Shown here in pieces: positions 1 through 31,725 of a stretch of DNA of 64,000 nt (its first letter is position 1; every line of letters starts with the position of its first letter). This DNA comes from an uncultured Myxococcales bacterium (GTDB taxonomy: Bacteria; Myxococcota_A; UBA9042; CAZBRS01), in the NCBI GenBank assembly GCA_964494475.1, contig CAZBRS010000003.1, positions 80,286 through 144,285 of the forward strand, in the 5' to 3' direction. The notes under the pieces are model-generated. The model saw only the letters and a program-made list of their open reading frames with translations, made no database searches and was not told the DNA's origin. Made by a program: the position numbers and the translations under genes.

Positions 1-680
1 ACCTGAACCGGGCCTCGACCGTGGTCTTCGGGCACGACGAAGACAACCGCCTGGCCATCTCCGAGGCCGTGCGCGCGTCGACGGCGCTGCCCATCATGTA
101 CAGCCCCGCGCGCCTGGCGGGCAACGAGTACGTCGACGCCGCCGTGCTGAAGACGGCGCACGTCACCCTGGCCGTCGAGAAGGGCGCCGACCTGATCATC
201 GCCTACAACCCGTTCCGACCGCTGGTCGTGCCCCAGGGCGCGGTCGAGCCGCGCGTCGAGGGGCTGGGGCAGCTCGGCATCTTCACCGTCATCAACCAGG
301 CCGCGCGCATGATGCTGCACGCCCGCCTGCAGGAGTCGCTCGACCGCATCCGCGACGAGAGCTCCTTCAAGGGCGACATCATCCTGTTCGAGCCGGTCGA
401 GGCCGACCGCAGCTTCTTCGCCACGAACCCCGTAGCCTTCTGGAAGCTCGCCTCGTCGGCCGAGCACGGCTTCGTCTCGGTCAAGGACAGCATCGAACGC
501 CACCACGACAAGCTGCGCCCCATCCTGCACCGCTACGGCATCGAGGCCGAGTTGGCGGGGCTGCGACGCGACTTCGACGACATCCACACGCGCTCGGCCG
601 GAGAAGACCAGGTCGCGATGGTCGAGCGCATGGGCACGCGCCAGGTGCCCCGCCGACTGCGCCACCTGCGCGCCGTGTGA
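1..680 (+). CDS. Patatin-like phospholipase, C-terminal portion (5' end lies outside the window)
   Basis: The ORF runs to the window edge. It carries a YVDAAVL...IAYNP motif that resembles the patatin D-G-G/A and NxP region. GC3 is high. Confidence 0.5.
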   Translation, partial: LNRASTVVFGHDEDNRLAISEAVRASTALPIMYSPARLAGNEYVDAAVLKTAHVTLAVEKGADLIIAYNPFRPLVVPQGAVEPRVEGLGQLGIFTVINQAARMMLHARLQESLDRIRDESSFKGDIILFEPVEADRSFFATNPVAFWKLASSAEHGFVSVKDSIERHHDKLRPILHRYGIEAELAGLRRDFDDIHTRSAGEDQVAMVERMGTRQVPRRLRHLRAV

Positions 681-702
681 GCGCCTGCCCGCTTTTCCTT
701 TT

Positions 703-731
703 TGAAGGCGCCGGCCGAACGGGCTATACTG
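703..731 (+). promoter_or_regulatory. Sigma70-like promoter, TTGAAG-17nt-TATACT
   Basis: TTGAAG lies at 703-708 and TATACT at 726-731, separated by exactly 17 nt. It sits in a non-coding gap after the patatin stop codon. Confidence 0.45.
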
Positions 732-737
732 AGCCTG

Positions 738-964
738 CCTGTGGGGCTCGTGAGGGGAGCCAGTGTGTTAACCCCTGACTGTTTGTCAGGGATCGATCTC
801 CTGGTCGTGGTGAGCTTCCGCCTCGCGCGGGAAGCCTGAAGCGGCCAAACCCGAACCCACCTGTTGGGTCAAGGGTTAACAAAGTCTCCCCCACGGCTCG
901 CGCGGGTTCCTCGCGCCCCGGATGAGCGGCACGTCGAGGCTGCCTTCCGGGGCGCCTTTTTTTT
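738..964 (+). ncRNA. Candidate structured small RNA of about 225 nt, unclassified
   Basis: The region is bounded by the promoter above and by an intrinsic terminator. The terminator stem is gcgccccgg at 913-921 paired with ccggggcgc at 947-955, followed by a T8 run at 957-964. A 12/13-bp long-range helix pairs 768-780 with 868-880. Internal hairpins include ctgac-tgttt-gtcag and gcttcc...ggaagc. No convincing ORF is present; the only one is a 25-codon GTG ORF that uses rare TTA, CCT, TGT and TCA codons. Confidence 0.45.
913..964 (+). terminator. Rho-independent terminator, 9-bp GC stem followed by a T8 run
   Basis: Inverted repeat gcgccccgg/ccggggcgc with an inner 4-bp ggca/tgcc helix, followed by tttttttt. 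It abuts the stop of the minus-strand gene at 968. Confidence 0.55.
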
Positions 965-967
965 CTT

Positions 968-2068
968 CTAACGACAGAGCGCGTCGGTGGGCGGGCAACG
1001 GAAGCGCACGTGCAGGTGGTCGGCGTGGCCCTTCACGTGCCGGATGATGCCCTCGCGCGTGGTGGACTCGCGCGGGTACTGGAAGAGCCGTTCGAGATCC
1101 TCGGCCGGGTAGCCGAGCGCCTCGGCGTGGGCCCGAAACAGGGGCTGCAGGCCGTGGTCCATGAACACGTACTCGACGCTGTCGGTGCGCAGGCACGACT
1201 CGATCAGCTGCCAGCTCTTCTCGACGTCGACGGTCTCGGGCGTGGCCTCGACGAAGTCGTAGAGTTCCTGGTTTCCGGTCAGGAAGTACGCCAGATCGAC
1301 GTCGCGCCCCGTCTTGTGCGACAGGTGGTGCTGGATGCGCCCGCCGATCGGCCCGCTGAGATCGCCCACGAATACGTCGGACGAGTCGGGATAACGCTCG
1401 TGCAGGTCGGCGATGGCCGTGCGGAGCAGTGCGATGGCCCAAGGTCGGCCGTAGTTCTTGTCGGGGCGCTTGATCACGTAGCCCTCGCCCGGCTCGAGCC
1501 GCGCCCAATCCTTCAGGAAGGGCCGCACCTCCTCGGCCTTGCGGGGGTCGCCCTTCTTGATGAGCACGAGCTGACCGGGGTGCAGCATGCGCAGCTTCTT
1601 CTCGCCGTTCAGGCGACGAAGGTCGGCCGCCGTCACGTCGTACTTGCGCGCGATGCTCCAGACCGAGTCGCCCTTGCGGACGCGGTGCACCTTGTCGAGG
1701 TCGCCCCAGGCCGGCTCGCGCTTGGCCTTGCCGGCCTTGCCCTTCGCGGTCGTCGCGCTACCCTTGCCCTTCACGGTCGTCGCGCTACCCTTGGCCTTCG
1801 TGGCGGGCTTCGCCGCGGCCTTGGCCGGCGTGGTCACGGCCTTTCCGCTCTTCCCGGCCTTCTCGGCCTTCTTCGCGGCCTTCTTTCCCGCCTTGGTGCC
1901 CCCAGCGGACTTGGTGGCCTTCTTGCCCGGGCCCTTGGCCTTCGTCGCCAGAGCGGGCTTGGCGGTGACCTTGGCCGCGGCCTCGGCCCGGAAGCCCCGG
2001 GGGTTCGGGAGCCCGCAGAGCGCGAGCACGATGAGGGCGATGAGCAGCTTGGTCCAACGACGCGCCAT
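968..2068 (-). CDS. LysM-domain murein endopeptidase, MepA-like LAS-family zinc peptidase, secreted
   Basis: There is a signal peptide, MARRWTKLLIALIVLALCG. An Ala/Lys/Pro-rich low-complexity linker follows. The LysM domain is GDSVWSIARKYDVTAADLRRLNG. The MepA zinc motifs are HHLSHKTGRDVDL and GHADHLHVRF. The start codon was chosen at 2068 (M of MARRW). Confidence 0.75.
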   Translation of the reverse strand: MARRWTKLLIALIVLALCGLPNPRGFRAEAAAKVTAKPALATKAKGPGKKATKSAGGTKAGKKAAKKAEKAGKSGKAVTTPAKAAAKPATKAKGSATTVKGKGSATTAKGKAGKAKREPAWGDLDKVHRVRKGDSVWSIARKYDVTAADLRRLNGEKKLRMLHPGQLVLIKKGDPRKAEEVRPFLKDWARLEPGEGYVIKRPDKNYGRPWAIALLRTAIADLHERYPDSSDVFVGDLSGPIGGRIQHHLSHKTGRDVDLAYFLTGNQELYDFVEATPETVDVEKSWQLIESCLRTDSVEYVFMDHGLQPLFRAHAEALGYPAEDLERLFQYPRESTTREGIIRHVKGHADHLHVRFRCPPTDALCR

Positions 2069-2279
2069 GGGCGCAGGATGGCCCAAGTCCGGGCAGGCGT
2101 CAATTCGCGAGCCGCGCTTGTCAGAATGACAACGTTTCGGGCGCCGACTCCGGCGTCGTGTCAACGAGACAGAGTTGCGGCGTGTGAAGCAGGGCCGCGC
2201 CGCTCGCTGTGCCGTTCGGATTCGCTGGCATCGAAGTTGCTTCCTGGTACCCTACGGTCGGAACCGTCGCGGGGTTCGG

Positions 2280-3473
2280 ATGATCCTACGTCGCCTCCTC
2301 ATCGCTGCGCTCGTCGTGCTCTGGAGCCAGGTGGCCACCGCCGAGATCTACGGCTTCGCCATCAACAAGATCGAGGGCTTGAACGGCGTCGAGCTCGACG
2401 ACCGCTTCGGCGTCACCGCGTCGGCCACCGAGCACCTCGTGAACTACAAGGACTGCCTGGCCTACCTGAACATCGACGCGGGCCAGAGCCTCGATCCCGA
2501 GAGCACCGTCGAAGAGGTCGTCGAGGCGACCACGACCGACGTCGTCGAGACGGTCGACGTCGCCGAAACGGTCGACGCGGCCGACGCCGCGAGCGACTCG
2601 GCCTCGCCGGCCGACACGTCGACCGACGGCTCCGGCGGGGGCGGCGGCGCAACCACCGAGGGCATCCGCAAGATCTCGATCGACTTCAGCGTCAACGACT
2701 CGCTGATCGGCAAGTGGTGGTACTCCATCCGCATCGGCAGCTGCACCGAGTCGTCCGAGGTCGACGAGGCCGCCACCGACTCGTGCACCTACCTGCGCCA
2801 GAAGACCGAGCTCACGCGCTACTCGACCGACACCATCGAGATCCCCGTCACGCGCATCCTCGGCTACGAGTGTGCCAAGGGCTCCACCGACGACGTGCGC
2901 CTCTACTTCACCATCCAGAGCGACCTCGACTACAACCAGCGCGGCACCGAGACCGTCGACATCGAGCTCGACTACGACGCGCCCAAGCCGGTGACGAACC
3001 TCACGCTCGAGGCGGGCGAGGAGAACCTCTCGGTGGCGTGGGACGATGAAGCCAACGCCGACACCGAGACCGTCACCTACCGGGTCTACTGGTACGACGC
3101 CTCGTTCGACGAGGACACCCTCGACGACGTGTCGAGCAAGGGCGATCTCACCGCCAAGGCGTTCCAGATTACCGGGCTCGAGAACGGCAAGGACTACTGG
3201 GTCGGCGTGGTCGCCCTCGACGACTTCGACAACGAGTCCACGCTCCCCGATCTGGTCGAGGGCACGCCCGTGCTGGTCACCGACGGCTTCGAGGCCTACA
3301 AGGACGCCGGGGGCGCCGAGAAGGGTGGCTTCGGCTGCACGGTGAATGGCGGCAGCGCGACCTCGGGCGCCGAAGCCTCGGCGAAGGCGGCGGCCGTGCT
3401 GCTGCTCCTGGCGGTCGCGCTGCTCGCGGTGCTGCCGCGGGGCGGGCGCCGCAACGCCGGGAGGGGAGCATGA
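2280..3473 (+). CDS. Secreted fibronectin-III-like domain protein with a MYXO-CTERM-like C-terminal sorting tail
   Basis: There is a signal peptide, MILRRLLIAALVVLWSQVATA. An acidic Thr/Asp-rich region follows, then an FN3-like segment (SVAWDD...YRVYWYD...GLENGKDYWV). The C-terminal tail GGFGCTVNGG...AAAVLLLLAVALLAVLPRGGRR is MYXO-CTERM-like. Confidence 0.7.
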   Translation: MILRRLLIAALVVLWSQVATAEIYGFAINKIEGLNGVELDDRFGVTASATEHLVNYKDCLAYLNIDAGQSLDPESTVEEVVEATTTDVVETVDVAETVDAADAASDSASPADTSTDGSGGGGGATTEGIRKISIDFSVNDSLIGKWWYSIRIGSCTESSEVDEAATDSCTYLRQKTELTRYSTDTIEIPVTRILGYECAKGSTDDVRLYFTIQSDLDYNQRGTETVDIELDYDAPKPVTNLTLEAGEENLSVAWDDEANADTETVTYRVYWYDASFDEDTLDDVSSKGDLTAKAFQITGLENGKDYWVGVVALDDFDNESTLPDLVEGTPVLVTDGFEAYKDAGGAEKGGFGCTVNGGSATSGAEASAKAAAVLLLLAVALLAVLPRGGRRNAGRGA

Positions 3474-4189
3474 ACCGCGTCGTCCTCGCCCTGCTGTTCA
3501 GCCTGGCCCTGCCCGCCAGCCTGGGGGCCGAGAGCCCGCGCAGCGTGAACCTCGAGTTCAAGCTGGCCGCCTGGTACGTACCCGAGGTCGACGACGAGTT
3601 CCCCGCGGGGGTGCACCCCTACCGCGACGTCTACGGCGACGGCTCGCTGCTGCTCTTCCAGATGCGCAGTGACTACATCTTCTACTCCGGCGTCTTCGGC
3701 ACCGTCGGGGCGGGCGGCGGTTTCGGCTACGGCCAGAAGACGGGCCATGGCTTCCTGACCGACGGCAGCCCCTCCAGCGACGACACCACGCTGCACCTGC
3801 TGCCCCTCGAGGGCGGCCTGCTCTACCAGTACGACTACCTGGCGACCCGATGGAACATCCCGGTGGTCCCCTACGGCCGCGCCGACCTGGCCTACGCCTT
3901 CTGGTGGATCACGAACGGCGTCGGCGACACGGCGGCCTACGTCGTGAACGGCGAGAAGCAGGCCGACGGCAAGGGCGGGACCTGGGGCTTCCGCCTGGCG
4001 GGTGGGGGCAAGCTGCTCCTCGACGTCTTCGCGCCCTCCATGGCCCGCACGTTCGACGTGGACTTCGGCGTGAACAACTCGTACGTGCTGGTCGAGTACG
4101 TCTGGACGCGCCTCGACGACTTCGGCTCCGCCTCCAGCATCCGGCTGGGCGGCGGGTACGTGAACTTCGGCCTGGCCTTCGAGTTCTGA
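3470..4189 (+). CDS. Outer-membrane beta-barrel protein
   Basis: There is a signal peptide. The protein is rich in Gly and aromatic residues, with an alternating pattern. The C-terminus ends FEF, with a terminal Phe. ATGA overlap with the upstream gene suggests translational coupling. Confidence 0.6.
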   Translation: MNRVVLALLFSLALPASLGAESPRSVNLEFKLAAWYVPEVDDEFPAGVHPYRDVYGDGSLLLFQMRSDYIFYSGVFGTVGAGGGFGYGQKTGHGFLTDGSPSSDDTTLHLLPLEGGLLYQYDYLATRWNIPVVPYGRADLAYAFWWITNGVGDTAAYVVNGEKQADGKGGTWGFRLAGGGKLLLDVFAPSMARTFDVDFGVNNSYVLVEYVWTRLDDFGSASSIRLGGGYVNFGLAFEF

Positions 4190-4192
4190 GCG

Positions 4193-5002
4193 GTGCGCTC
4201 CCTCCGGCTGCTCATCGCCTTCGACGGCACCGACTTCTCGGGATTCCAGCGCCAACCGAACGTCCGCACCGTGCAGGGCGAGCTCGAGGCCGCGGTCCTC
4301 GCGCTCACGGGCGAGACCACGCGCGTGCGCGGCTCGAGCCGCACCGACGCGGGCGTCCACGCGCGCGAACTGCTCGTGAGCTTCCAGACCGAGCGCGCCT
4401 ACCCGCTCCGAGCCTTCCACCTGGGACTGAACGCGCTGCTGCCGCCCGACGTGGCGGTGATGGAGGCCGCCGAGGCCCCCGACGGCTTCAACGCCCGCTG
4501 GGCCTCGCTCGGCAAGACCTACTCGTACACCCTCTGGAACGCGCGCTCGCCGAACCCGCTGCTCCGTCGCACCGCGTGGCACCTGAAGAAGCCCCTCGAC
4601 GTCGACCTCGTCCGCGCCGCCCTGCCCGACCTGGTGGGCTCGCGCGACTTCGCGTCGTTCCGGGCCGCGCACTGCGACGCGCCGACCACCGAGAGGGAGG
4701 TCTGGCGGGCCACGTGGGACGTCGAGGGCGACACGCACCGCTTCACCATCTGCGGCAACGCCTTCCTGCGCAACATGGTGCGCATCGTGGTGGGCACGTT
4801 GGTCGAGATCGGGCTCGGTCGACGTCCCCCCGACGATCTTCGGCGCCTCTTCGAGGTCCTCGATCGAACCCAGGCGGGCGAGACCGCGCCGCCCCAGGGC
4901 CTCACGCTCGAGCGCGTCTTCCTGACGCGCGCGGCGCTGTTCGAGCACCTGGGCCGCGAGGTCCGGGTGTACAAGGAGCCGTTGGTCGACGACCCCACCT
5001 GA
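4193..5002 (+). CDS. truA: tRNA pseudouridine(38-40) synthase TruA
   Basis: GTG start. The conserved RTDAGVHA motif is present, and the overall TruA signature includes FLRNMVR. Confidence 0.85.
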   Translation: MRSLRLLIAFDGTDFSGFQRQPNVRTVQGELEAAVLALTGETTRVRGSSRTDAGVHARELLVSFQTERAYPLRAFHLGLNALLPPDVAVMEAAEAPDGFNARWASLGKTYSYTLWNARSPNPLLRRTAWHLKKPLDVDLVRAALPDLVGSRDFASFRAAHCDAPTTEREVWRATWDVEGDTHRFTICGNAFLRNMVRIVVGTLVEIGLGRRPPDDLRRLFEVLDRTQAGETAPPQGLTLERVFLTRAALFEHLGREVRVYKEPLVDDPT

Positions 5003-5011
5003 TGCAGCGAC

Positions 5012-5470
5012 CTACTCGGGGAAGAGGCGCGAGACGTGCGATCCGTCGGGCGCGTGGGCGGCCAGCAGGAATCGCCCCCGCAGGTTGGCCCCCAGGGGGT
5101 CGAAGACGGCGCGCGGCTCGGAGGCGGCGGCCAGCCAGGCACGAACCTCCACGTCGGCCAGCAACTCGGCCAGCAGCGCGTCGAAGCGAGCGCTGAAGTC
5201 GGCCACCACGTCGGACAGATCGGGGTCGGAGGGCTCGTCGGGCCGGAGGGGGAACGCCACCTCGGTGAGCACGAGCAGCCGCGGAGGCACGTCGACGGTG
5301 CGCGACAGCGTGAGCTCGATTCGCTCCTGCAGGGGGGGATCGAGCGCCGCCACGCGCGCCGACGCCACCTTCCACGACGCCAGCAGCGGAGCGGCCGAGC
5401 CGCGGCGCGCGCGCTCGAGCGCCTGCTCGACGGTCAGGGTGGGCGCGACTTCGTTGGGGGGAGTGGCCAC
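5012..5470 (-). CDS. Hypothetical acidic protein downstream of the calpain-like protease
   Basis: High GC3 on the same strand and in the same operon as the calpain-like gene. No recognisable domain. Confidence 0.45.
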   Translation of the reverse strand: MATPPNEVAPTLTVEQALERARRGSAAPLLASWKVASARVAALDPPLQERIELTLSRTVDVPPRLLVLTEVAFPLRPDEPSDPDLSDVVADFSARFDALLAELLADVEVRAWLAAASEPRAVFDPLGANLRGRFLLAAHAPDGSHVSRLFPE

Positions 5471-22986: not shown

Positions 22987-24207
22987 ATGCGCTGGATCTT
23001 CAGGCTGCTCCTCCTGTTGCCCCTGGTGGCCCTCGGCCTGTTGGCGCTGGCCTGGGCGCTGTTGGTCCACACCGACGCCCCCGCGCACGTCGTGACCACC
23101 GGATTCAACGACGAGAACACCCGGCTGTGGCTCGAGGCCCGAACGGCTCGCCTGCACGGCGACCTGATGGGCCTGCGGATCGAGGACCTCTCGCTGGCCG
23201 AGCGCACGCGCACGCAGCCCATGGTGCGCGTCGAACGCTTCGATGCGAGCTTGAGCGCGCTGCCCACCGATGACCTCGTCGACATCGATCGCGTCGAGGT
23301 GAGCGGACTCGACATCGATCTCGACGTGGCCTGCCTGCCCGCCCTGCAGGAGTTCGCGATCCGCAAGGCCGAGCCCCCGAAGCCCGGCGGGCCGGCGCCG
23401 TCGGTCCGCTTCGGGAGGCTCGTGCTCACCGACGCGTCCTTCGCGTGGCGGGGCGCCGCGTCGTCCGTCGAGATCCCCGACCTCGACCTCGAGCTCTCGG
23501 GCGTCACGGGACCGGCCACCGACGTGACGCTCGCCGCGAGCCTGGCGGGCGCCACCATCGGCGCCGCGTCCACGGCGGTCAAGCTGGGCAAGCTGAAGCT
23601 CGACGGCTCGTTGAAGGGCAGCACGGAGGGCTCGGGAGAGTTGAAGCTCGACGCCGTCGCGCTCGAGAGCGTCGAGGCCGGCGCCTGGCGGATCGGGGGG
23701 CTGGCGCTCGGGGAAACGACGCTGACCTTGCAGGGACTCGGTGGGCGGCTGGTCCTCGGCGCGCTCGGGCTCCGCAGCCTCACCGGCCCCGACTTCGATC
23801 TGGCCGACGCCACCCTCTCGCTCGACGCCACGGGAGGGCTGGCCGGCGTCGAGCTCACGCGGGCCGCGCTCTCCTCGCCGCGCCTCTCGATCACGCTCGA
23901 CGGCACCGCGAAGCCCACCCTCGGCCTCACGGGCAGCGGCCTCGAGGTCAAGCTGCAGGGCTCGTTCCAGGTCGAGCCCGCGGCGCTGCTGCCGAAGGCC
24001 TGCGCCGGCGTCACCCGCGCGAGCGGGCGCTTCCTCGTCACGGGCGGATCGAAGGGCGGCCTGAAGCTCGACTCGCTCACGCTCACGATGACCGGCGCCG
24101 ACGGCGACCACGAGTTCACGCGCTCGGGCGTGGCGCTGACCGAAGGTGCGGTCGTACGAGCCCTCTTCAGTGAACTGTGCTCCACGGTGGGCACCGGAGC
24201 GCCGTGA
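22987..24207 (+). CDS. AsmA-like membrane-anchored protein, first gene of the TamB/Omp85 operon
   Basis: The ribosome binding site GGAG precedes the ATG at 22987. There is an N-terminal TM anchor, followed by beta-rich repeats rich in Gly and Leu. Confidence 0.55.
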   Translation: MRWIFRLLLLLPLVALGLLALAWALLVHTDAPAHVVTTGFNDENTRLWLEARTARLHGDLMGLRIEDLSLAERTRTQPMVRVERFDASLSALPTDDLVDIDRVEVSGLDIDLDVACLPALQEFAIRKAEPPKPGGPAPSVRFGRLVLTDASFAWRGAASSVEIPDLDLELSGVTGPATDVTLAASLAGATIGAASTAVKLGKLKLDGSLKGSTEGSGELKLDAVALESVEAGAWRIGGLALGETTLTLQGLGGRLVLGALGLRSLTGPDFDLADATLSLDATGGLAGVELTRAALSSPRLSITLDGTAKPTLGLTGSGLEVKLQGSFQVEPAALLPKACAGVTRASGRFLVTGGSKGGLKLDSLTLTMTGADGDHEFTRSGVALTEGAVVRALFSELCSTVGTGAP

Positions 24208-27200
24208 CCACGCCGTCGGCCAGGGAGACCCCCCCGCGCACGCGCCCACCCCGCAGGGGAGGCTTGCGGCGCCTCGGCCGCTGGGCCGTGCGCCTGCTGG
24301 CGACCCCCTTCCTGCTGCTCGCCCTCTCCTACCCGGTGGCCTGGTTCGCGCTCAATTCACCCGAATTCCTGACCCGCGCGCTCACGACCGTCAACGAGGC
24401 CATCCCTGGCACCATCCGGGTACGCGAGCTGGAGTGGGGGCCCCTGCCCTGGAGGCTCCACCTCACGGGCGTTCGCATCCTGGCGCCCGGCGACCCCGAG
24501 CCCGTGATCGCGGTGAACGACCTGGTGGTCGACCTCGCGCTGACCGACGCGCTGCGGAGCGCCCTCGCCACGCTCCTGCGGGGCGAGGGCTTCTTCCTGC
24601 CCGTCGACTCCGTGACGATGCGGGGCTACTCGTGCACGCTCACCTTCGACGACGACTTCGACCTGCGCCTGAAGCACGCGTTCGTGACCCCGACCCCCGC
24701 TGCCGAGGAGCCCCCGGACCCCGAGGACACGGACGACGACGCCAGGGGCTTCTCGATGGACGTTCGACGGGTGGTGGGACGCGGAGGCCGCTTCCGCATC
24801 GACTACCCGGCGTGGGGAGCGTCGACCGACGGCATCGACCTGTACGCGGTGTTCCGCCTCGAGAGCGACGGGACCCCCTTCGTGCTGGCGTCGACCGTCA
24901 CGAGCCGACGGGGTGAACTGCGGGTGGGCGACGGCGGACAGCCGGTGGTCTTCCCCTTCGAGGACCTCGAGGTCCACGGCTACATGCTCGATCACCTCTT
25001 CGAGCGCTTCGGGAGCGTCCGCTTCTCCAGCGAGGGCCTCCGGGTGCTGGCCACCGGACACCTGGCCACCGACGATCCCGCGCGCTGGTCCGAGCTCATC
25101 GCCAAGATCGAGGTGCCCGTCGACGCCCCGGGTCTGCTGCGATGGACGGGCGACCACGTGAGCCTGGCCGCGCCGGCCTCGTTCGAGGGACGCCTCGAGG
25201 GCCCCCTGGCGAGCCCGTCCCTGACCTTGGCGGCGGGGCCCCTGGCGATCACCAGCCCCTGGGTCCCGGGCCGGGTCTCGGTCGAACCGTTCCAGGCCAC
25301 CCTCGCCTTCCGGCCCATCGACGACGAGCTCAGCATCTCGCGCCTGGCCTTCGCGGGCGACTGCCTGCCGGCCGTCGAGGCCCGTGGGCTGCGGTTGGGC
25401 CTGGGCTCGCTGAACATCGAGGGCGAACTGCACGCCGGCGAGCTCTCGCGCGCGTTGTGGCCGCTCGACTGGCCCGTGGTGCTCGAGGCCGTGAAGAAGG
25501 CGGGGGGCTCTCTGCGCGTGGCGGGTCAGTTGCCCCTCGGCGAGGTCTGCGGACGACGGCTGGAGCTCGACGCCGACCTCGATCTCGGTGGGCACAGGGG
25601 ATTGACGGGCCGGCTCACGTGGGACCCCACGCGCCTCGAGTTGACCGATCTGCGCCTGGCGATGGACGTGGGCGAGGCCTCGGCCACCGGCTGGATCGAG
25701 CCCGGATCGGGCCGGCTCGACCTGCGCACCGAGGGCAAGGTGCGCGACCTCGCGACGTTCGTCGAGCGCCTGCACCTGCCTCCACGGGTGGCCGGCTCGG
25801 CGGTGTGGTCGGCCGAGGCCCGCGGCGCGTGGCCCGACCTCGACGGGAGGGGTTCGCTCGACGCCACGGCGCTGCACGTGGCCGGCCTCGACCTGGGCGC
25901 CGTTCGAGCGCGGGCCACGTTCGAGGAGCGGGTGCTCCGAGCCACGCGCTTCGAGATGACGGGGCCCCTCGGCGCCTATGCCGGGCGCGGCCTCGTCGAG
26001 CTCGACGAGGCCTGGCGGCCGACGCACGTTCGGCTCGACGAGGTGCGGGCCGCGCTCGACGCGCCCTCCATCCTCCTGCCCGATCTTCCCCTCGGCGCGC
26101 GGCTCGAGGTCAGCGCGACCGACCTCGAGCTCGAGGTCTCGGCGCCGCTGGCCTCGCTTCGGGGGAACGCGACGGTGCGGGCGGCCGGCGTGTCGTGGCT
26201 GGGCGAACCCATCGGCGACGTACAGGCCGACGTGCACGCGCCCGCTGGCGGCGATCTGCGGCTCGATCGCGTCGAGGTCCGCCGAGGGGGCAAGCGCCTG
26301 CTGGCCGCGGGGCTGACCGTCGATCGCGGCCTCGAGCGCGTGGCGGGCTCGGCGTCCGTCTCGGCGACCGTGGCGGAGCTCCCGTTCCTCCAAGGCCTGC
26401 CGTTCCCGCTGTCCGCCGAGGTCGCGCTCTCGCTCAGCGTCGAGGGTGCGCTCCTCGACCCCCTGGTGAGCGGCGTGCTTCGGCTCGACGACTGGGAGGT
26501 GCGCCCGCGTCCGGGCCTGCGGGTCCGGGGCAACGAGGCCACCGTGCGCCTGTGGGGTCGGCCCTCGACCGGCCTGCACCTGGCCTCGGACGACCTCTAC
26601 CCCGGCGTGCGGCTCAGCGAGCAGTCCACGCTGCGGCCCCTCGACGTCGACCTCTTCCTCGAGGTCGAGGGCCTGCAGCCCCTCGAGTTCTTCGAGGCGG
26701 CGGCCGACCTGCCCCTCTCCATCACGCTCGGCGGCACCTACCGCGTGAGCGCCCGCTTCGGCGGGCCCGCCTCGGTCACGGTGCTCGGCCGCATCCCGCG
26801 CCGGTCGCTCGGGGTGTCGCTGCAGGACGAAGAGGTGACCCTCTGGAACGAGGAGGAGACCGTCTTCGGCGTGTCGCCCCTGGGGCTCTTCGTGAACCGC
26901 CTCCACCTGACCGGCCAGAGCCTCGAGGCCGCCCTGTGCGGCGAGATCGGCCCCGACGGGGCGCTCGACGTGTCGGCCTCGCTGCAGGCCCGCGTCGCCA
27001 ACCTGCCGGGCCTGAAGGAGTTCCTCATCGAGCGGGGCGGCGAGCTCCGGACCGAGGGGCGGGGCGACGCGGCCTCGTGCCTGCCCGACGCTGGCGGCAT
27101 CCACGTGGGGGGCACGTTGGACCGACCTCGCTTCTCGGGGGCCGTGGTGCTGCAGGACCTGGCGCTGCGCCCGCGCGGCTTCGCGAGCACGATCCAGGTG

Positions 27201-28415
27201 CCCGGCCGGGCGCGCCTGCTCGTGAGCCAGGAGGACGACGAGACCTGGGTGCGCGTCGACCCTGAGGCGCCGCTGAAGGGCGTGCTCGACGAGGGCGCCT
27301 TCGAGGTGTCCGGCTCGGCCCGCTTCCGGCGCTTCCGGTTCGAGGAGGGCTCCGTCACCGTGACCGGCGCCAACGTGGCCTATGCGCTCCCCGGCGTGAC
27401 CGAGTTCACGGCCAACCCGAAGCTCACCCTCACCGCGCGCCCCGGCACCGACGACCCCTACGTGCTCTCGGGCGACGTGCGGTTCGTGAGCGGCCTGTTC
27501 TACAAGGACTTCGACCAACTGCGGCAGATGCTGACGGGAGTGCTCGGCGACCGTCACGCCGCCGCCTACTCGCGCCCCATCGACGAGCTCCTGCCCTTCG
27601 TCAAGGACCTGCGCTTCGACGTGCGCCTGCGGGGCCAGAACTACGACGTGCGCTGCCGCCTGCCGTTCGGCGAGACGGATCTGGCGTTGAACCTCGACCT
27701 CCGCCTGGCCGGTACGTACAGCCAGCCCGAGCTCTACGATCGCGTCGAGATCGTGCCCGGCTCCATGGTCACGTACCAGCTCGTGAAGCGCGACTTCGAG
27801 GTGACCCACGGCACCCTCGACTTCACGGGCGAGCCGGCGCGCCCCGAAGTCGAGATCCGCGCCAAGACCGACATCGACGTGCTGGTGCGCGCGGGGTCCA
27901 CGGGAGGCGCGACCACGGCCTGGATCGACACCGATCGCGAGGAGACGGTCACGCTCGTGCTGGCCCTCTCGGGGCGCCCCCCCGATCTGCGCTTCGACCT
28001 GTCGTCGAACCGCACCGACTTCGACCAGGAGGATCTGCAGTACCTGCTGGTGACGGGCCAGCCCAAGCAGGCGGGCAGCTCGGGCCTCGTGAGCGGCGTC
28101 AGCCTGAACCTGCTGACCCAGGATCTCGTGAAGTCGCTCTCGAGCTTCTTCCTGGCTCCCTTCCTCGACCGGGTCAGCCTGGGCTTCACGGCCGAGGGGG
28201 GCGTGAACGCCGACCTCATGACCCGGCTGGGTCGCCGCGTACAGCTTCGCACTCGCATCCTGCAGGAGGGCACCGACGTACGCTACTCGGCCGGCTTCAC
28301 GTTGAAGCTGAGCGATCGCCTGAGCCTCGACGGCCGCATGAAGGCCATCGAGACCGAGGGCTTCCAGAGCCGCACCTACGAGGCCAAGCTGCGCTACCGC
28401 ATCGAGGTCGACTGA
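24204..28415 (+). CDS. TamB-like translocation and assembly module protein (AsmA family, DUF490-type C-terminus)
   Basis: The GTG start overlaps the upstream stop as GTGA. There is an N-terminal TM anchor. The protein is about 1400 aa of beta-rich sequence. The C-terminal region (LDLRLAGTYSQPELYDRVEIVPGS...) resembles TamB DUF490. Confidence 0.7.
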   Translation: MTTPSARETPPRTRPPRRGGLRRLGRWAVRLLATPFLLLALSYPVAWFALNSPEFLTRALTTVNEAIPGTIRVRELEWGPLPWRLHLTGVRILAPGDPEPVIAVNDLVVDLALTDALRSALATLLRGEGFFLPVDSVTMRGYSCTLTFDDDFDLRLKHAFVTPTPAAEEPPDPEDTDDDARGFSMDVRRVVGRGGRFRIDYPAWGASTDGIDLYAVFRLESDGTPFVLASTVTSRRGELRVGDGGQPVVFPFEDLEVHGYMLDHLFERFGSVRFSSEGLRVLATGHLATDDPARWSELIAKIEVPVDAPGLLRWTGDHVSLAAPASFEGRLEGPLASPSLTLAAGPLAITSPWVPGRVSVEPFQATLAFRPIDDELSISRLAFAGDCLPAVEARGLRLGLGSLNIEGELHAGELSRALWPLDWPVVLEAVKKAGGSLRVAGQLPLGEVCGRRLELDADLDLGGHRGLTGRLTWDPTRLELTDLRLAMDVGEASATGWIEPGSGRLDLRTEGKVRDLATFVERLHLPPRVAGSAVWSAEARGAWPDLDGRGSLDATALHVAGLDLGAVRARATFEERVLRATRFEMTGPLGAYAGRGLVELDEAWRPTHVRLDEVRAALDAPSILLPDLPLGARLEVSATDLELEVSAPLASLRGNATVRAAGVSWLGEPIGDVQADVHAPAGGDLRLDRVEVRRGGKRLLAAGLTVDRGLERVAGSASVSATVAELPFLQGLPFPLSAEVALSLSVEGALLDPLVSGVLRLDDWEVRPRPGLRVRGNEATVRLWGRPSTGLHLASDDLYPGVRLSEQSTLRPLDVDLFLEVEGLQPLEFFEAAADLPLSITLGGTYRVSARFGGPASVTVLGRIPRRSLGVSLQDEEVTLWNEEETVFGVSPLGLFVNRLHLTGQSLEAALCGEIGPDGALDVSASLQARVANLPGLKEFLIERGGELRTEGRGDAASCLPDAGGIHVGGTLDRPRFSGAVVLQDLALRPRGFASTIQVPGRARLLVSQEDDETWVRVDPEAPLKGVLDEGAFEVSGSARFRRFRFEEGSVTVTGANVAYALPGVTEFTANPKLTLTARPGTDDPYVLSGDVRFVSGLFYKDFDQLRQMLTGVLGDRHAAAYSRPIDELLPFVKDLRFDVRLRGQNYDVRCRLPFGETDLALNLDLRLAGTYSQPELYDRVEIVPGSMVTYQLVKRDFEVTHGTLDFTGEPARPEVEIRAKTDIDVLVRAGSTGGATTAWIDTDREETVTLVLALSGRPPDLRFDLSSNRTDFDQEDLQYLLVTGQPKQAGSSGLVSGVSLNLLTQDLVKSLSSFFLAPFLDRVSLGFTAEGGVNADLMTRLGRRVQLRTRILQEGTDVRYSAGFTLKLSDRLSLDGRMKAIETEGFQSRTYEAKLRYRIEVD

Positions 28416-28416
28416 C

Positions 28417-31400
28417 GTGAACCGGCCCCGCACCAGGAGGCTCGCCCTGTTCTTGGGGCTCTTGCTGGCGGCAGCGCCCCGCCTCGCGGCGCAGGTCGTC
28501 TCGGTCGAGGGCGTGCCCGACGCCGGCCCCTGCCTCGGACACCCGCTGGCCGACGTGCGCGTGACCGCCTGCACCCTCGATCGCTGCGCCGACCCCGACT
28601 TCGTGGCGTCCCTGGTGGGCTCGCTCGGGCTGTTGCCGGGCCTGGTGCTGCAGGTCGACGACCTCGCGCGCGCCAGCGGAAGGCTCGCGGCGCTGCAGGT
28701 CTTTCGCGGGATCGAGCTCCGCTGCGTGGCCGCCTCGGGCGATCCGCCGTCACCCGCGGAGGGGCTCGTGGCTCCGGTCGTCCTCGAGCTCTCGCTCGAG
28801 GGACGGTACGTGGTCGACGACGTCACGATCAGCGGCCATCGCGACCTGTACAAGTCCGACATCCTGAAGCGCACCTACCTGCGCGCAGGCCAGTACCTGG
28901 AAGACGCGTCGCCCGACGCCGAGGCGTTCCGCAGCCAGGCCCGCGCCCTGGAGGCGCTGCACGAGCGCGAGGGCTTCGAGGGCGCGAAGGTCGAGGTCGT
29001 GCCCGTCCCGCTCCCGAACAACCGCGTCCGCGTCGAGATCCGAATCCAGCCGGGCCTCCGCCACGTGCTCGAGCGCATCGACGTGACGCTGGGCGAGCCC
29101 GACCCCTCGTCGGGATGCGCGGCGCTCGGAGAAAGCGAGGTGCGCTCGGCCTTCGGCCTGAAGGCCGGCGCGACGCTGACCCCCAAGGTGCTGAAGGACG
29201 CGCGCCGCGCGCTGCTCGCTCGACTCTGGGCGCACGGCGCGACCAATGCCCGGGTGACGACCGAGCTCGACGAGGAGGGGTCGATCGTCCGCCTCGCCGT
29301 GCACCACTCGCAGTGCTGGCGCGTGCAGTTCTGGACGTCGCGGGACGATCCGGCGCGGCCCTACGTGCCCGCCGACCCGTCGGACTGGCGCGACGTGCTC
29401 ACGTTCAAGGAGAGCGGGACCTTCGACTGGGAGGAGGCCGAGATCGGTCGCCTGGCCCTGATCGATCACCTGCGCGAGCGCGGCTACGTCGACGCCCGCG
29501 TGACGATGGAGGTGCGCACGCTCCCGACCGACGGCAGCCCCGCCGTGCTCGGCCAGGTCGACTACTTCCTCGACCTCGGGCGCCCACCGACCATCGACCG
29601 CATCACCTTCGTGGGCCGCGAGCACCTGGCCGAGTCCGACCTGCGCGAGCTGATGCAGACCGAGGAGTACAGCCTGTTCTCGCAGGGAGGCACGCTGCTG
29701 GTCGAGCAGCTCTTCTCGGACCTGGGCCGCATCGCCGAGCGTTACCGGGCCGAGGGCTTCCACGCCTTCGCGTTCGAGGGCGCCCGCGCCGACGACGACA
29801 CGCGCCAGCGCATCGAGCGCAACCCCGACCCTGCCGTCGGCGGCCCGGGCGACCAGGGGACCGAGCGCGAGGTGTGGCGCTGGTCCCGTGGCGAGTTGGC
29901 GTTCGATCTGGTGCGCCGGAAGGGCAAGGGCGGGGTCGAGGTCCAGATTCGGTTGCTCGAGGGACCCCGCAGCGTGCTCGAGGCCGTCGACGTGGCGGGG
30001 GCCTCGCGCCTCAGCGAGGAGCGGCTGCGCCGCGCGCTCGGCCTGACCGCCAACCTGCCCTGGAGCCTGCCGGTGCTGCAGCGCCTCGAGGGCGCGCTGC
30101 GCAACACGTACAGCGCGCGGGGCTTCTCGATGATGACCTTCGAGAGCCGCTGCGCCGCGCGCGAACCCGACGTGGAGTGGGGGCCCTGCGACGTCGACCG
30201 CCTGAAGAGCCGACGCGTCCTGCTGCGCTTCACCATCGACGAGGGCGAGAAGGCCGTCGTCCGGCACGTCTTCGTCTTCGGCAACCGCGTGACGCGCTCG
30301 TCGTTCGTGCTGGCCAGCCTGCCGAAGCCCGGAGAACCCTACGACATCGAGCGCGTGCGCGCCGGCATCACCGACCTGCGCAACACCGGCCTGTTCGCGT
30401 CGGTGCAGGCCAGCGCGCTCGGCCCCGACGAGCAGCCCCCGAGCCGCGACGTGACCCTGGTCGTGCACGTCGAAGAGCTCGACTACCAGACGTTCGACGT
30501 GGCCGCCGGCTTCGAGACCATCAACCGCCCCGGCGAGAGCGCGCCGGCCTTCGTCTCGACCCTCGTGCGCAACAGCGTGGCGGTCGCCGACGCCTCGCTC
30601 ACGGGCAACGAGGAGCCCTTCCTGACCGAACTGCCCGACCTGTTGATCACGGCCGAGGTGGCGTACACCAACATGAACTTCCTGGGCCGCGCCCGCCAGC
30701 TCTACGTGCCGCTCAAGTACGGCTTCTCGATGACGCATCCCCTCCGCTACGCCTCGTTCGCGCCCATGTACACCGACCCCTACTTCACGCGCCCGCGCCT
30801 CACGTTGCAGGTCTCGCCCTTCGTCACCTACGACCGCGCCACCGAGGCCATCGACAAGGCGCTGCTCGGGCTGACCACGGCGCTCTCGAAGTCGTTCCTG
30901 GGGCACTTCCACGTGTCGCTCGGCTACGAGATCTCCGAGATCACCTACCGCCTGCCCGGCGACCCCGTGCGCGGCGACTGGAGCCCCTGGGGCCTGCAGA
31001 ACAAGGTGAACCTGCGCGGCTCGATCACGTACCTCGACAACCCCATCCACCCCACGCGCGGCGTCTTCCTCGGCGCGAGCACCACCTACCTGAACGCGCT
31101 GCAGCAGGGCGACTTCCGCAACTTCGTGAAGTGGGATCTGCAGGTGAAGGGCTTCCTGCCCGTGCGCCGTTGGCTGGTCATCGGCTCGATGGCGCGCTAC
31201 GCCGACAGCCGCTCGTTCGAGGGCGCCGCCCTGCCCGACTACGAGCGCTACAAGCTGGGCGGCTCGAAGGGCCTGCGCGGCTTCGACGACGACGCCGTGA
31301 CCCAGTACTACGCCGACGGCTCCCTGCGCTACGCGCCCGTCGAGACCGTCGACGGCGAGACCCGCGCGGTGCAGGCGCTGCAACCCTTCGGTGGCGACGT

Positions 31401-31725
31401 GCTGATCCAGGGCTCCGAAGAGCTGCGCGTGCCCATCTGGCGCGCCATGGGGCTGTGGGCCGGGGGCTTCTTCGATTGGGGCGCCGTGGCCGAGCGCGCG
31501 GTCGAGCTGCACGCCAAAAGCTTCCGCACCTCCGCGGGCTTCGGTCTGCGCTGGCTGCTCGGCGGCCAGGTGCCCCTGCGCATCGACTACGGCTTCAAGC
31601 TCGAGCGGCGCTGCGAGAAGCTGGGCTACGCCGACCCCGCCAACGCCACGGCGGCCGACGAGCCGGTGTGCCTGGCGAAGGAGAACCTGGGCGCGCTGCA
31701 CTTCGGGTTCTTGTATACGTTCTGA
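28417..31725 (+). CDS. Omp85-family outer-membrane protein (BamA/TamA-like), unusually long at 1102 aa
   Basis: The GTG start lies 1 nt after the TamB-like stop. There is a signal peptide, a POTRA-like region and a C-terminal surface-antigen barrel (GGSKGLRGFDDD...LHFGFLYTF). Confidence 0.75.
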   Translation: MNRPRTRRLALFLGLLLAAAPRLAAQVVSVEGVPDAGPCLGHPLADVRVTACTLDRCADPDFVASLVGSLGLLPGLVLQVDDLARASGRLAALQVFRGIELRCVAASGDPPSPAEGLVAPVVLELSLEGRYVVDDVTISGHRDLYKSDILKRTYLRAGQYLEDASPDAEAFRSQARALEALHEREGFEGAKVEVVPVPLPNNRVRVEIRIQPGLRHVLERIDVTLGEPDPSSGCAALGESEVRSAFGLKAGATLTPKVLKDARRALLARLWAHGATNARVTTELDEEGSIVRLAVHHSQCWRVQFWTSRDDPARPYVPADPSDWRDVLTFKESGTFDWEEAEIGRLALIDHLRERGYVDARVTMEVRTLPTDGSPAVLGQVDYFLDLGRPPTIDRITFVGREHLAESDLRELMQTEEYSLFSQGGTLLVEQLFSDLGRIAERYRAEGFHAFAFEGARADDDTRQRIERNPDPAVGGPGDQGTEREVWRWSRGELAFDLVRRKGKGGVEVQIRLLEGPRSVLEAVDVAGASRLSEERLRRALGLTANLPWSLPVLQRLEGALRNTYSARGFSMMTFESRCAAREPDVEWGPCDVDRLKSRRVLLRFTIDEGEKAVVRHVFVFGNRVTRSSFVLASLPKPGEPYDIERVRAGITDLRNTGLFASVQASALGPDEQPPSRDVTLVVHVEELDYQTFDVAAGFETINRPGESAPAFVSTLVRNSVAVADASLTGNEEPFLTELPDLLITAEVAYTNMNFLGRARQLYVPLKYGFSMTHPLRYASFAPMYTDPYFTRPRLTLQVSPFVTYDRATEAIDKALLGLTTALSKSFLGHFHVSLGYEISEITYRLPGDPVRGDWSPWGLQNKVNLRGSITYLDNPIHPTRGVFLGASTTYLNALQQGDFRNFVKWDLQVKGFLPVRRWLVIGSMARYADSRSFEGAALPDYERYKLGGSKGLRGFDDDAVTQYYADGSLRYAPVETVDGETRAVQALQPFGGDVLIQGSEELRVPIWRAMGLWAGGFFDWGAVAERAVELHAKSFRTSAGFGLRWLLGGQVPLRIDYGFKLERRCEKLGYADPANATAADEPVCLAKENLGALHFGFLYTF

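Follow-up and report, generated by a model that had tools for sequence, protein, structure and literature searches.

A structured RNA encoded between two convergent genes of an uncultured Myxococcales bacterium is very probably 6S RNA

Near the start of a 64-kb stretch of DNA from an uncultured Myxococcales bacterium (contig CAZBRS010000003.1; hereafter the window, meaning the whole stretch analysed), two convergent genes leave between them a gap that runs from the stop codon of a patatin-like phospholipase gene (678-680, plus strand) to that of a gene for a LysM and peptidase M74 protein (968-970, minus strand; hereafter the endopeptidase gene). A preliminary description of this gap proposed a structured small RNA, flanked by a promoter and a terminator, which could not be matched to 6S RNA by eye. 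Which RNA, then, does the gap encode? We read positions 1-2400, listed the open reading frames (ORFs) around the gap, and compared the region with known RNA families, with orthologous loci and with the ssrS gene of Escherichia coli. The plus-strand segment 733-912 is very probably the ssrS gene for 6S RNA, an ordinary member of its family.

When the 64-kb window was searched with cmscan against Rfam 15, the 6S/SsrS family RF00013 matched 733-912 (+) with 74.2 bits (gathering score 46.4; E 9e-13), and it was the sole match at the gathering threshold. The match covered model positions 1-187 of 187, with an aligned RNA of 180 nucleotides (nt), and 43 of the 51 model pairs were canonical when the Rfam consensus structure was projected onto the window RNA. 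The failure to recognise 6S RNA by eye is thus overturned by the very comparison, cmscan against Rfam, that the preliminary description had proposed as a check, and which settles the identity as 6S. A permissive Rfam scan of 600-1100 gave no 6S match on the opposite strand, and Rfam, promoter and terminator agree on the plus strand. The fold was also unusually stable, with z-scores of -3.8 (733-912) and -5.0 (733-968) (none of 200 shuffles was as stable), and the closing stem and the apical arm were recovered independently by the minimum free energy (MFE) fold and by RNAalifold. As 733-736 and 908-912 are variable and unpaired, the functional 6S body probably spans about 737-907. The coordinates of all features are collected in Table 1.

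Table 1. Features of the ssrS locus in the window, with the evidence for each
Feature	Position	Strand	Evidence or remark
6S RNA (ssrS), Rfam-delimited	733..912	+	RF00013 match
-35-like hexamer TTGAAG	702..707	+	Promoter scan
-10 hexamer TATACT	725..730	+	Promoter scan; invariant in all five orthologous intergenic regions
Closing (terminal) stem, 5' strand	737..759	+	MFE fold, RNAalifold consensus, open-bubble constrained fold
Helix P2 ('downstream duplex'), 5' strand	764..774	+	Rfam alignment; pairs with 873-883
5' central-bubble strand	775..788	+	Rfam structure
Apical stem-loop with internal loops	789..858	+	Rfam alignment and folds; apical loop 822-826
3' central-bubble strand, opens with family-conserved ACCUG	859..872	+	Rfam alignment
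Helix P2, 3' strand	873..883	+	Rfam alignment; folds
Closing stem, 3' strand	886..907	+	MFE fold, RNAalifold consensus, open-bubble constrained fold
G+C-rich 3' hairpin, intrinsic-terminator stem	913..955	+	Folds; outer stem invariant in five orthologs
T8 tract of terminator	957..964	+	Sequence; C956 between hairpin and tract
Patatin-like phospholipase gene, 3' part	21..680	+	ORF list; Pfam PF01734 Patatin, 29.8 bits
Convergent gene, LysM + peptidase M74 (penicillin-insensitive murein endopeptidase-like)	968..2067	-	ORF list; Pfam PF03411 and PF01476; orthologs P0001-P0006

Orthologous loci were sought through the endopeptidase gene. A scan of a genome collection with the C-terminal domain of the endopeptidase as query gave three distant loci only, with 33-35% identity (a Nannocystaceae metagenome-assembled genome (MAG), a Nannocystales MAG and an uncultured proteobacterium), and in these three no 6S RNA was found beside the endopeptidase homolog. 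At the very edge of the Nannocystales MAG locus, some 2.9 kb away from the endopeptidase homolog, the clade 6S model matched L002 6300-6385 (-) weakly (15.3 bits, E 0.09); Rfam gives no match at threshold there, and the weak match is probably noise. A protein search returned six closer endopeptidase orthologs with 58-93% identity, all metagenomic, and the named relatives of the flanking gene were Nannocystales and Polyangiales MAGs only, at about 34% identity. Neither Pfam matches of the largest ORFs nor a tRNA scan yielded a taxonomic marker, so that from this analysis a placement in Myxococcota is plausible. Four of the metagenomic contigs (L004-L007) span the intergenic region and were aligned with the window, and the L008 and L009 contigs stop short of the gap. 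All four keep the same layout, an endopeptidase gene, a gap of about 290 bp and a convergent patatin gene, and in each a full-length 6S match (75.9-83.5 bits) lies in the corresponding place and orientation. A pattern scan of metagenomes with a loosened 3' bubble/P2 motif gave three loci, the RNAs of which were identical to those of L005 or L006, and added no diversity. Weak reverse-strand 'echo' matches of the clade covariance model, of 25-43 bits, were seen at each 6S gene, among them window 741-911 (-), L006 3530-3689 (+) and L007 682-861 (+); they are expected because 6S RNA is rod-like and quasi-palindromic.

Across the five sequences, mean column identity in the RNA body was 91%, and the spacer from the patatin stop codon to the -10 box diverges freely. 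The window RNA was 85-93% identical to its orthologs, a level close to that of the neighbouring conserved coding domains as a whole and above that of their third-codon positions (75-87% for the endopeptidase gene, 79-91% for the patatin gene). Substitutions affect 36 positions, which are concentrated at the two variable ends (733-736 and 908-912), in the 5' bubble hairpin loop and in the apical loop, and they fall on the three codon positions in numbers of 14, 11 and 11, that is, with no periodicity. No conserved ORF was found in the five orthologous regions, in which starts, ends and frames shift. RNA conservation, the lack of codon periodicity and the shifting ORFs together indicate that the ssrS region is non-coding and under purifying selection as RNA.

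These results also bear on the possibility that the gap holds a small protein-coding gene and that the RNA structure is incidental. A single ORF of 25 codons, as first described, was not reproduced: ORFs of 28-56 codons (with ATG, GTG or TTG starts) lie on both strands, and a 56-codon minus-strand ORF persists in three of the five orthologs. Open frames are expected, however, in conserved DNA of 63% G+C; the starts, ends and frames of these ORFs differ among orthologs through 1-nt indels, the plus-strand ORF of the window begins inside the -35 box, upstream of the putative transcription start, and the substitutions are spread almost evenly over codon positions as given above. A coding gene is therefore vanishingly improbable, and the earlier view in its general form, a structured non-coding small RNA transcribed as a unit of its own with no downstream gene to regulate, is backed by the conservation of the region, by its fold statistics and by the absence of any ORF kept among the orthologs.

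The assignment to 6S RNA was examined in the reverse direction with model R1, a covariance model built from the five sequences alone and the projected structure. Against a 10-kb E. coli RefSeq locus (L013) in which ssrS is annotated at 5001-5184, R1 found exactly 5001-5184 (+), with 53 bits over the full model (E about 2e-10 for 93 kb). The window and E. coli RNAs were 49% identical over 175 aligned positions, with higher identity at unpaired (61%) than at paired positions (40%). Forty of 50 pairs were canonical in both RNAs and 20 were doubly changed yet paired, in a comparison of two lineages through an alignment that was fitted to the model structure and favours pairing; in slid controls, with the 3' partners moved by 1-3 columns, only 0-3 doubly changed pairs were kept. 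Three of the computable features of a 6S RNA are present, namely a full-length model score, a rod-like architecture of about 180-200 nt and a reciprocal match to a validated 6S RNA.

The reading implicit in the preliminary description, that of a lineage-specific small RNA unrelated to 6S, such as a regulator that pairs with mRNAs, can be weighed at this point. A promoter and a terminator of its own would suit such an RNA, as would the failed match by eye and the absence of a downstream plus-strand gene, which is as had been stated: the next gene, at 968-2067, is convergent and on the minus strand. Against it stand a full-length Rfam 6S match 28 bits over the gathering score, the reciprocal recovery of E. 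coli ssrS and the 20 compensated pairs, and the other families returned by the permissive scan (ncS54, mmgR and a betaproteobacterial toxic small RNA) were far below threshold and confined to the terminator hairpin and its U tract. We regard an unrelated small RNA as extremely unlikely, and effectively refuted already.

In the 6S RNA of the window, the closing stem comprises 21 bp with bulges at 748, 753 and 900, and its changes among orthologs are one-sided, with the pairs kept. The pairs of P2 have probabilities of 0.36-0.66 in the free-RNA ensemble, and of the internal regions the apical loop with its adjoining stem varies most. In the model alignment the central bubble has 14 + 14 nt, and the prediction for the free RNA folds both strands into local hairpins, one of seven perfect base pairs on the 5' side (773-779/785-791, probability 0.63-0.95) and one on the 3' side (855-859/865-869, probability 0.64-0.75). 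The motif CCCUGAC (773-779) can take three mutually exclusive states, as it may pair locally with its perfect partner GUCAGGG (785-791), pair over a long range with the near-duplicate GUCAAGGG (868-875, probability 0.05), or remain single-stranded as in the canonical open form. With one more nucleotide included, CCCCUGAC (772-779) faces the same choice between GUCAGGG and GUCAAGGG.

The long-range helix and the two local hairpins had both been noticed in the preliminary description, and both needed correction. The helix is real, in the register 768-779/868-879 with 11 of 12 pairs and a C775/A872 mismatch and not with the claimed 12 of 13; it extends outward to 764/883, its outer seven pairs are those of P2, and its inner part 776-779/868-871 enters the bubble (868-872, probability 0.05). 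The two hairpins are those given above, and they are not enclosed by the helix, as had been thought, but compete with its inner end. The Rfam posterior is lower at 866-872.

Both strands of P2 contain the palindrome GUUAAC (767-772 and 875-880), each self-complementary, by which P2 strands could in principle pair between molecules. A collapse helix of the Bacillus subtilis type was also considered, with UUUGU at 782-786 and ACAAA at 879-883, and was rejected, as its 5' partner varies in the orthologs without compensation; inspection of the five-sequence alignment gave no collapse helix kept across orthologs.

Promoter scanning of 500-1200 gave one sigma-70-like site, TTGAAG-17-TATACT at 702-730 (+), with 9 of 12 consensus matches and no equivalent in 50 shuffles. 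The promoter is present as first described, and 'near-consensus' was a generous term for it (4/6 in the -35 and 5/6 in the -10 hexamer). Since the -10 box ends at 730, transcription would start at about 737, at the first paired base of the closing stem, and because the promoter abuts the mature 5' end we expect no long 5' leader and little or no 5' processing, unlike in E. coli. A weak terminator-like hairpin, with 5 bp and a T-rich tail, lies at 679-694 (+) right after the patatin stop codon, in overlap with the -35 hexamer that serves the 6S gene, and may shield 6S transcription from the patatin gene upstream.

At the other end, the terminator proved larger than the strong one first described. 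The outer stem of its hairpin has 10 bp (913-922/946-955; nine G-C and one A-U), an inner stem extends it to about 16 bp, and the whole hairpin has a predicted energy of -33.4 kcal/mol (z = -3.9); a simple terminator scan reports only its tip. The outer stem GCGCCCCGGA/UCCGGGGCGC is invariant in all five sequences. A G+C-rich hairpin followed by U8 on the transcribed strand is the arrangement of an intrinsic terminator, and as judged from the sequence it probably ends the transcript at about 228 nt. The T tract stops 3 nt short of the endopeptidase stop codon. A bidirectional terminator that also serves the convergent endopeptidase gene was considered and rejected, as the plus strand has no A tract ahead of the hairpin.

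Several observations weigh against an ordinary 6S gene arranged in this way and have to be set beside the evidence for it, together with the bias towards pairing of the E. coli alignment. Among the five sequences there were no double compensatory changes, and shuffles equalled the real structure; the helix changes were all one-sided with the pair kept (G-C to G-U to A-U). As the sequences are 91% identical, the absence of covariation within the clade is a lack of power and no contradiction, so that the ortholog comparison proposed in the preliminary description bore out conservation and the lack of a conserved small ORF and had no power on covariation. The -35 hexamer, which is the weakest part of the promoter call, reads TTGAAG in the window and L007 only, and TTCCCT or TTCCCG in the other three sequences. 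The U tract is U8 in the window, U7 in L007 and U6 in L005, and it is degenerate in L004 (UCGCAUUUUC) and in L006 (UUUCUAUU); because the stem is invariant where the U tract decays, the 913-955 hairpin may be selected beyond termination, for example as a retained stabilising 3' domain. The open-bubble conformer, at -76.2 kcal/mol, is 9.7 kcal/mol less stable than the MFE fold at -85.9 kcal/mol. Finally, the register of P2 and the bubble is ambiguous between the Rfam alignment (764-774/873-883) and a shifted, E. coli-like one (771-780/867-876), as CCCCUGAC/GUCAAGGG resembles the E. coli downstream duplex in the shifted register.

An invariant 3' hairpin stem, kept even with a decayed U tract, and competing bubble-strand hairpins of unusual stability would also suit a 6S-derived RNA of altered function, with core or alternative-sigma polymerase as its target or with the 3' hairpin as an extra domain, and RNAs of related structure but with different targets, Ms1 among them, are known (PMC9130861). 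However, all canonical 6S elements are present and the family-model score is normal; genuine 6S RNAs such as B. subtilis 6S-1 also have bubble hairpins (PMC8876501), and a retained putative terminator hairpin has been reported for B. subtilis 6S-2 (PMC10578484). Altered function is hence very unlikely, and an ordinary 6S RNA remains our reading. A further proposal is that the 6S RNA of this clade makes two lineage-specific functional additions to the 6S design, namely a three-way switch at CCCUGAC that could tune polymerase binding or the release driven by product RNA (pRNA), and a 3' hairpin retained in the mature RNA (about 228 nt in place of about 175 nt); we consider it unlikely.

As an ordinary 6S RNA, a well-known and abundant kind of RNA that restrains RNA polymerase, the window RNA can be assigned a function by analogy. 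6S RNA mimics an open promoter and binds RNA polymerase holoenzyme with the housekeeping sigma factor, and such sequestration is typical of stationary phase (PMC8876501, PMC9670815). The window 6S RNA would likewise sequester the primary-sigma holoenzyme through open-promoter mimicry, and when nucleotides return, the polymerase would copy the 5' bubble strand and the 5' strand of P2 into a short pRNA. P2 is known both as a pRNA template and for its part in the unwinding step (PMC8876501), and by homology its 5' strand 764-774 would be the template for most of the pRNA. Judged by where E. coli U44 falls in the model alignment, synthesis is predicted to start at about 775-779, with a product such as 5'-(GUC)AGGGGUUAACAC; candidate pRNAs complementary to about 764-779 are 5'-AGGGGUUAACAC and 5'-GUCAGGGGUUAAC. 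The pRNA:6S hybrid would then unzip P2, the RNA would refold and the polymerase would be let go.

This release step was imitated in silico by forbidding pairing of the template segment in the fold. As a positive control, the E. coli RNA with 31-44 sequestered reproduced the published 9-bp 3' bubble hairpin (PMC8876501). With 764-779 sequestered in the window RNA, the freed GGGUU (873-877) paired with AACCC (848-852), which gave a two-tier 3' hairpin of 848-852/873-877 around 855-859/865-869 that is partly populated in the free RNA as well. The modelled hairpin may correspond to the release hairpin that the 3' bubble strand forms in E. coli, a likeness that is suggestive only.

Several further observations concern the neighbouring genes. 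The patatin-like gene is truncated by the start of the window, and a full-length patatin gene of 449-451 amino acids lies at the same place in the orthologous loci. In the endopeptidase gene, a tandem duplication of about 27 nt (about 1744-1797, minus strand) lies within a Lys/Ala-rich linker, where it encodes KGKGSATTV / KGKGSATTA; the linker is the most divergent part of the protein among orthologs. Metagenomic relatives (L005 and L006) keep the gene order PEGA-domain protein, patatin, 6S and convergent LysM/M74 endopeptidase, followed beyond the endopeptidase by two hypothetical proteins, one with an fn3 domain (window 1-5000), and the L005 locus runs on into TruA and TolB genes. Farther along the window, at 24177-31722 (+), a TamB-like protein gene (PF04357) adjoins an Omp85/POTRA protein gene (PF01103, PF07244), which looks like a translocation-and-assembly-module pair and has no relation to the 6S finding.

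With the gap holding the ssrS gene of this genome, the outcome is a correct annotation and no new class of RNA. One more 6S sequence is gained for an uncultured, G+C-rich lineage that has been little sampled, the closest relatives of which are metagenomic only, in a clean standalone arrangement of promoter, 6S and terminator. For comparisons of 6S release mechanisms across phyla, the competing pairings in the bubble region and the conserved 3' hairpin could be of interest.

When aligned to the RF00013 model, the window RNA shows its elements in the order of the family (closing stem, internal loop, P2, central bubble, apical stem), and it has conserved unpaired motifs of the family, such as ACCUG, with which the 3' bubble strand begins, and GCCUGAA, which lies in the apical arm. 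It differs in that seven model pairs, the outermost three and four halfway along the apical arm, are unformed, and in that the 12-nt internal loop that the model places between closing stem and P2 is mostly paired in this RNA (754-759/886-891), so that the closing stem is longer. With E. coli 6S RNA it shares, in almost the same form, the CCCCUGA and CAAGGGUUA motifs at the downstream duplex, with the same C/A mismatch; the E. coli duplex has CCCCUGA/UCAAGGG in common with the window, displaced by 5-7 nt from the register of the Rfam alignment. Both RNAs also form an extended 3' hairpin from the freed 3' strand of P2 once the pRNA template is sequestered in silico. In contrast, E. coli ssrS follows zapA and is co-transcribed with fau (ygfA), whereas the window ssrS stands alone with its own terminator between convergent neighbours, and the free 3' bubble strand of E. 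coli has been described as essentially unstructured (PMC8876501), whereas both bubble strands of the window RNA are predicted to form hairpins.

B. subtilis offers parallels for these hairpins. Its 6S-1 RNA forms a 3' bubble hairpin in the free RNA, and weak 5' bubble pairing has been predicted for it (PMC8876501); compared with 6S-1 and 6S-2, the 5' bubble hairpin of the window RNA is much stronger (seven perfect base pairs, probability up to 0.95). B. subtilis 6S-2 likewise carries a putative terminator hairpin, attached at its 3' end as part of the RNA (PMC10578484). B. subtilis has both 6S-1 and 6S-2, and the 64-kb window has one 6S gene. Despite these differences in gene context, promoter and bubble hairpins, the window ssrS is within the known 6S/SsrS kind, and an annotation based on Rfam would label it as such.

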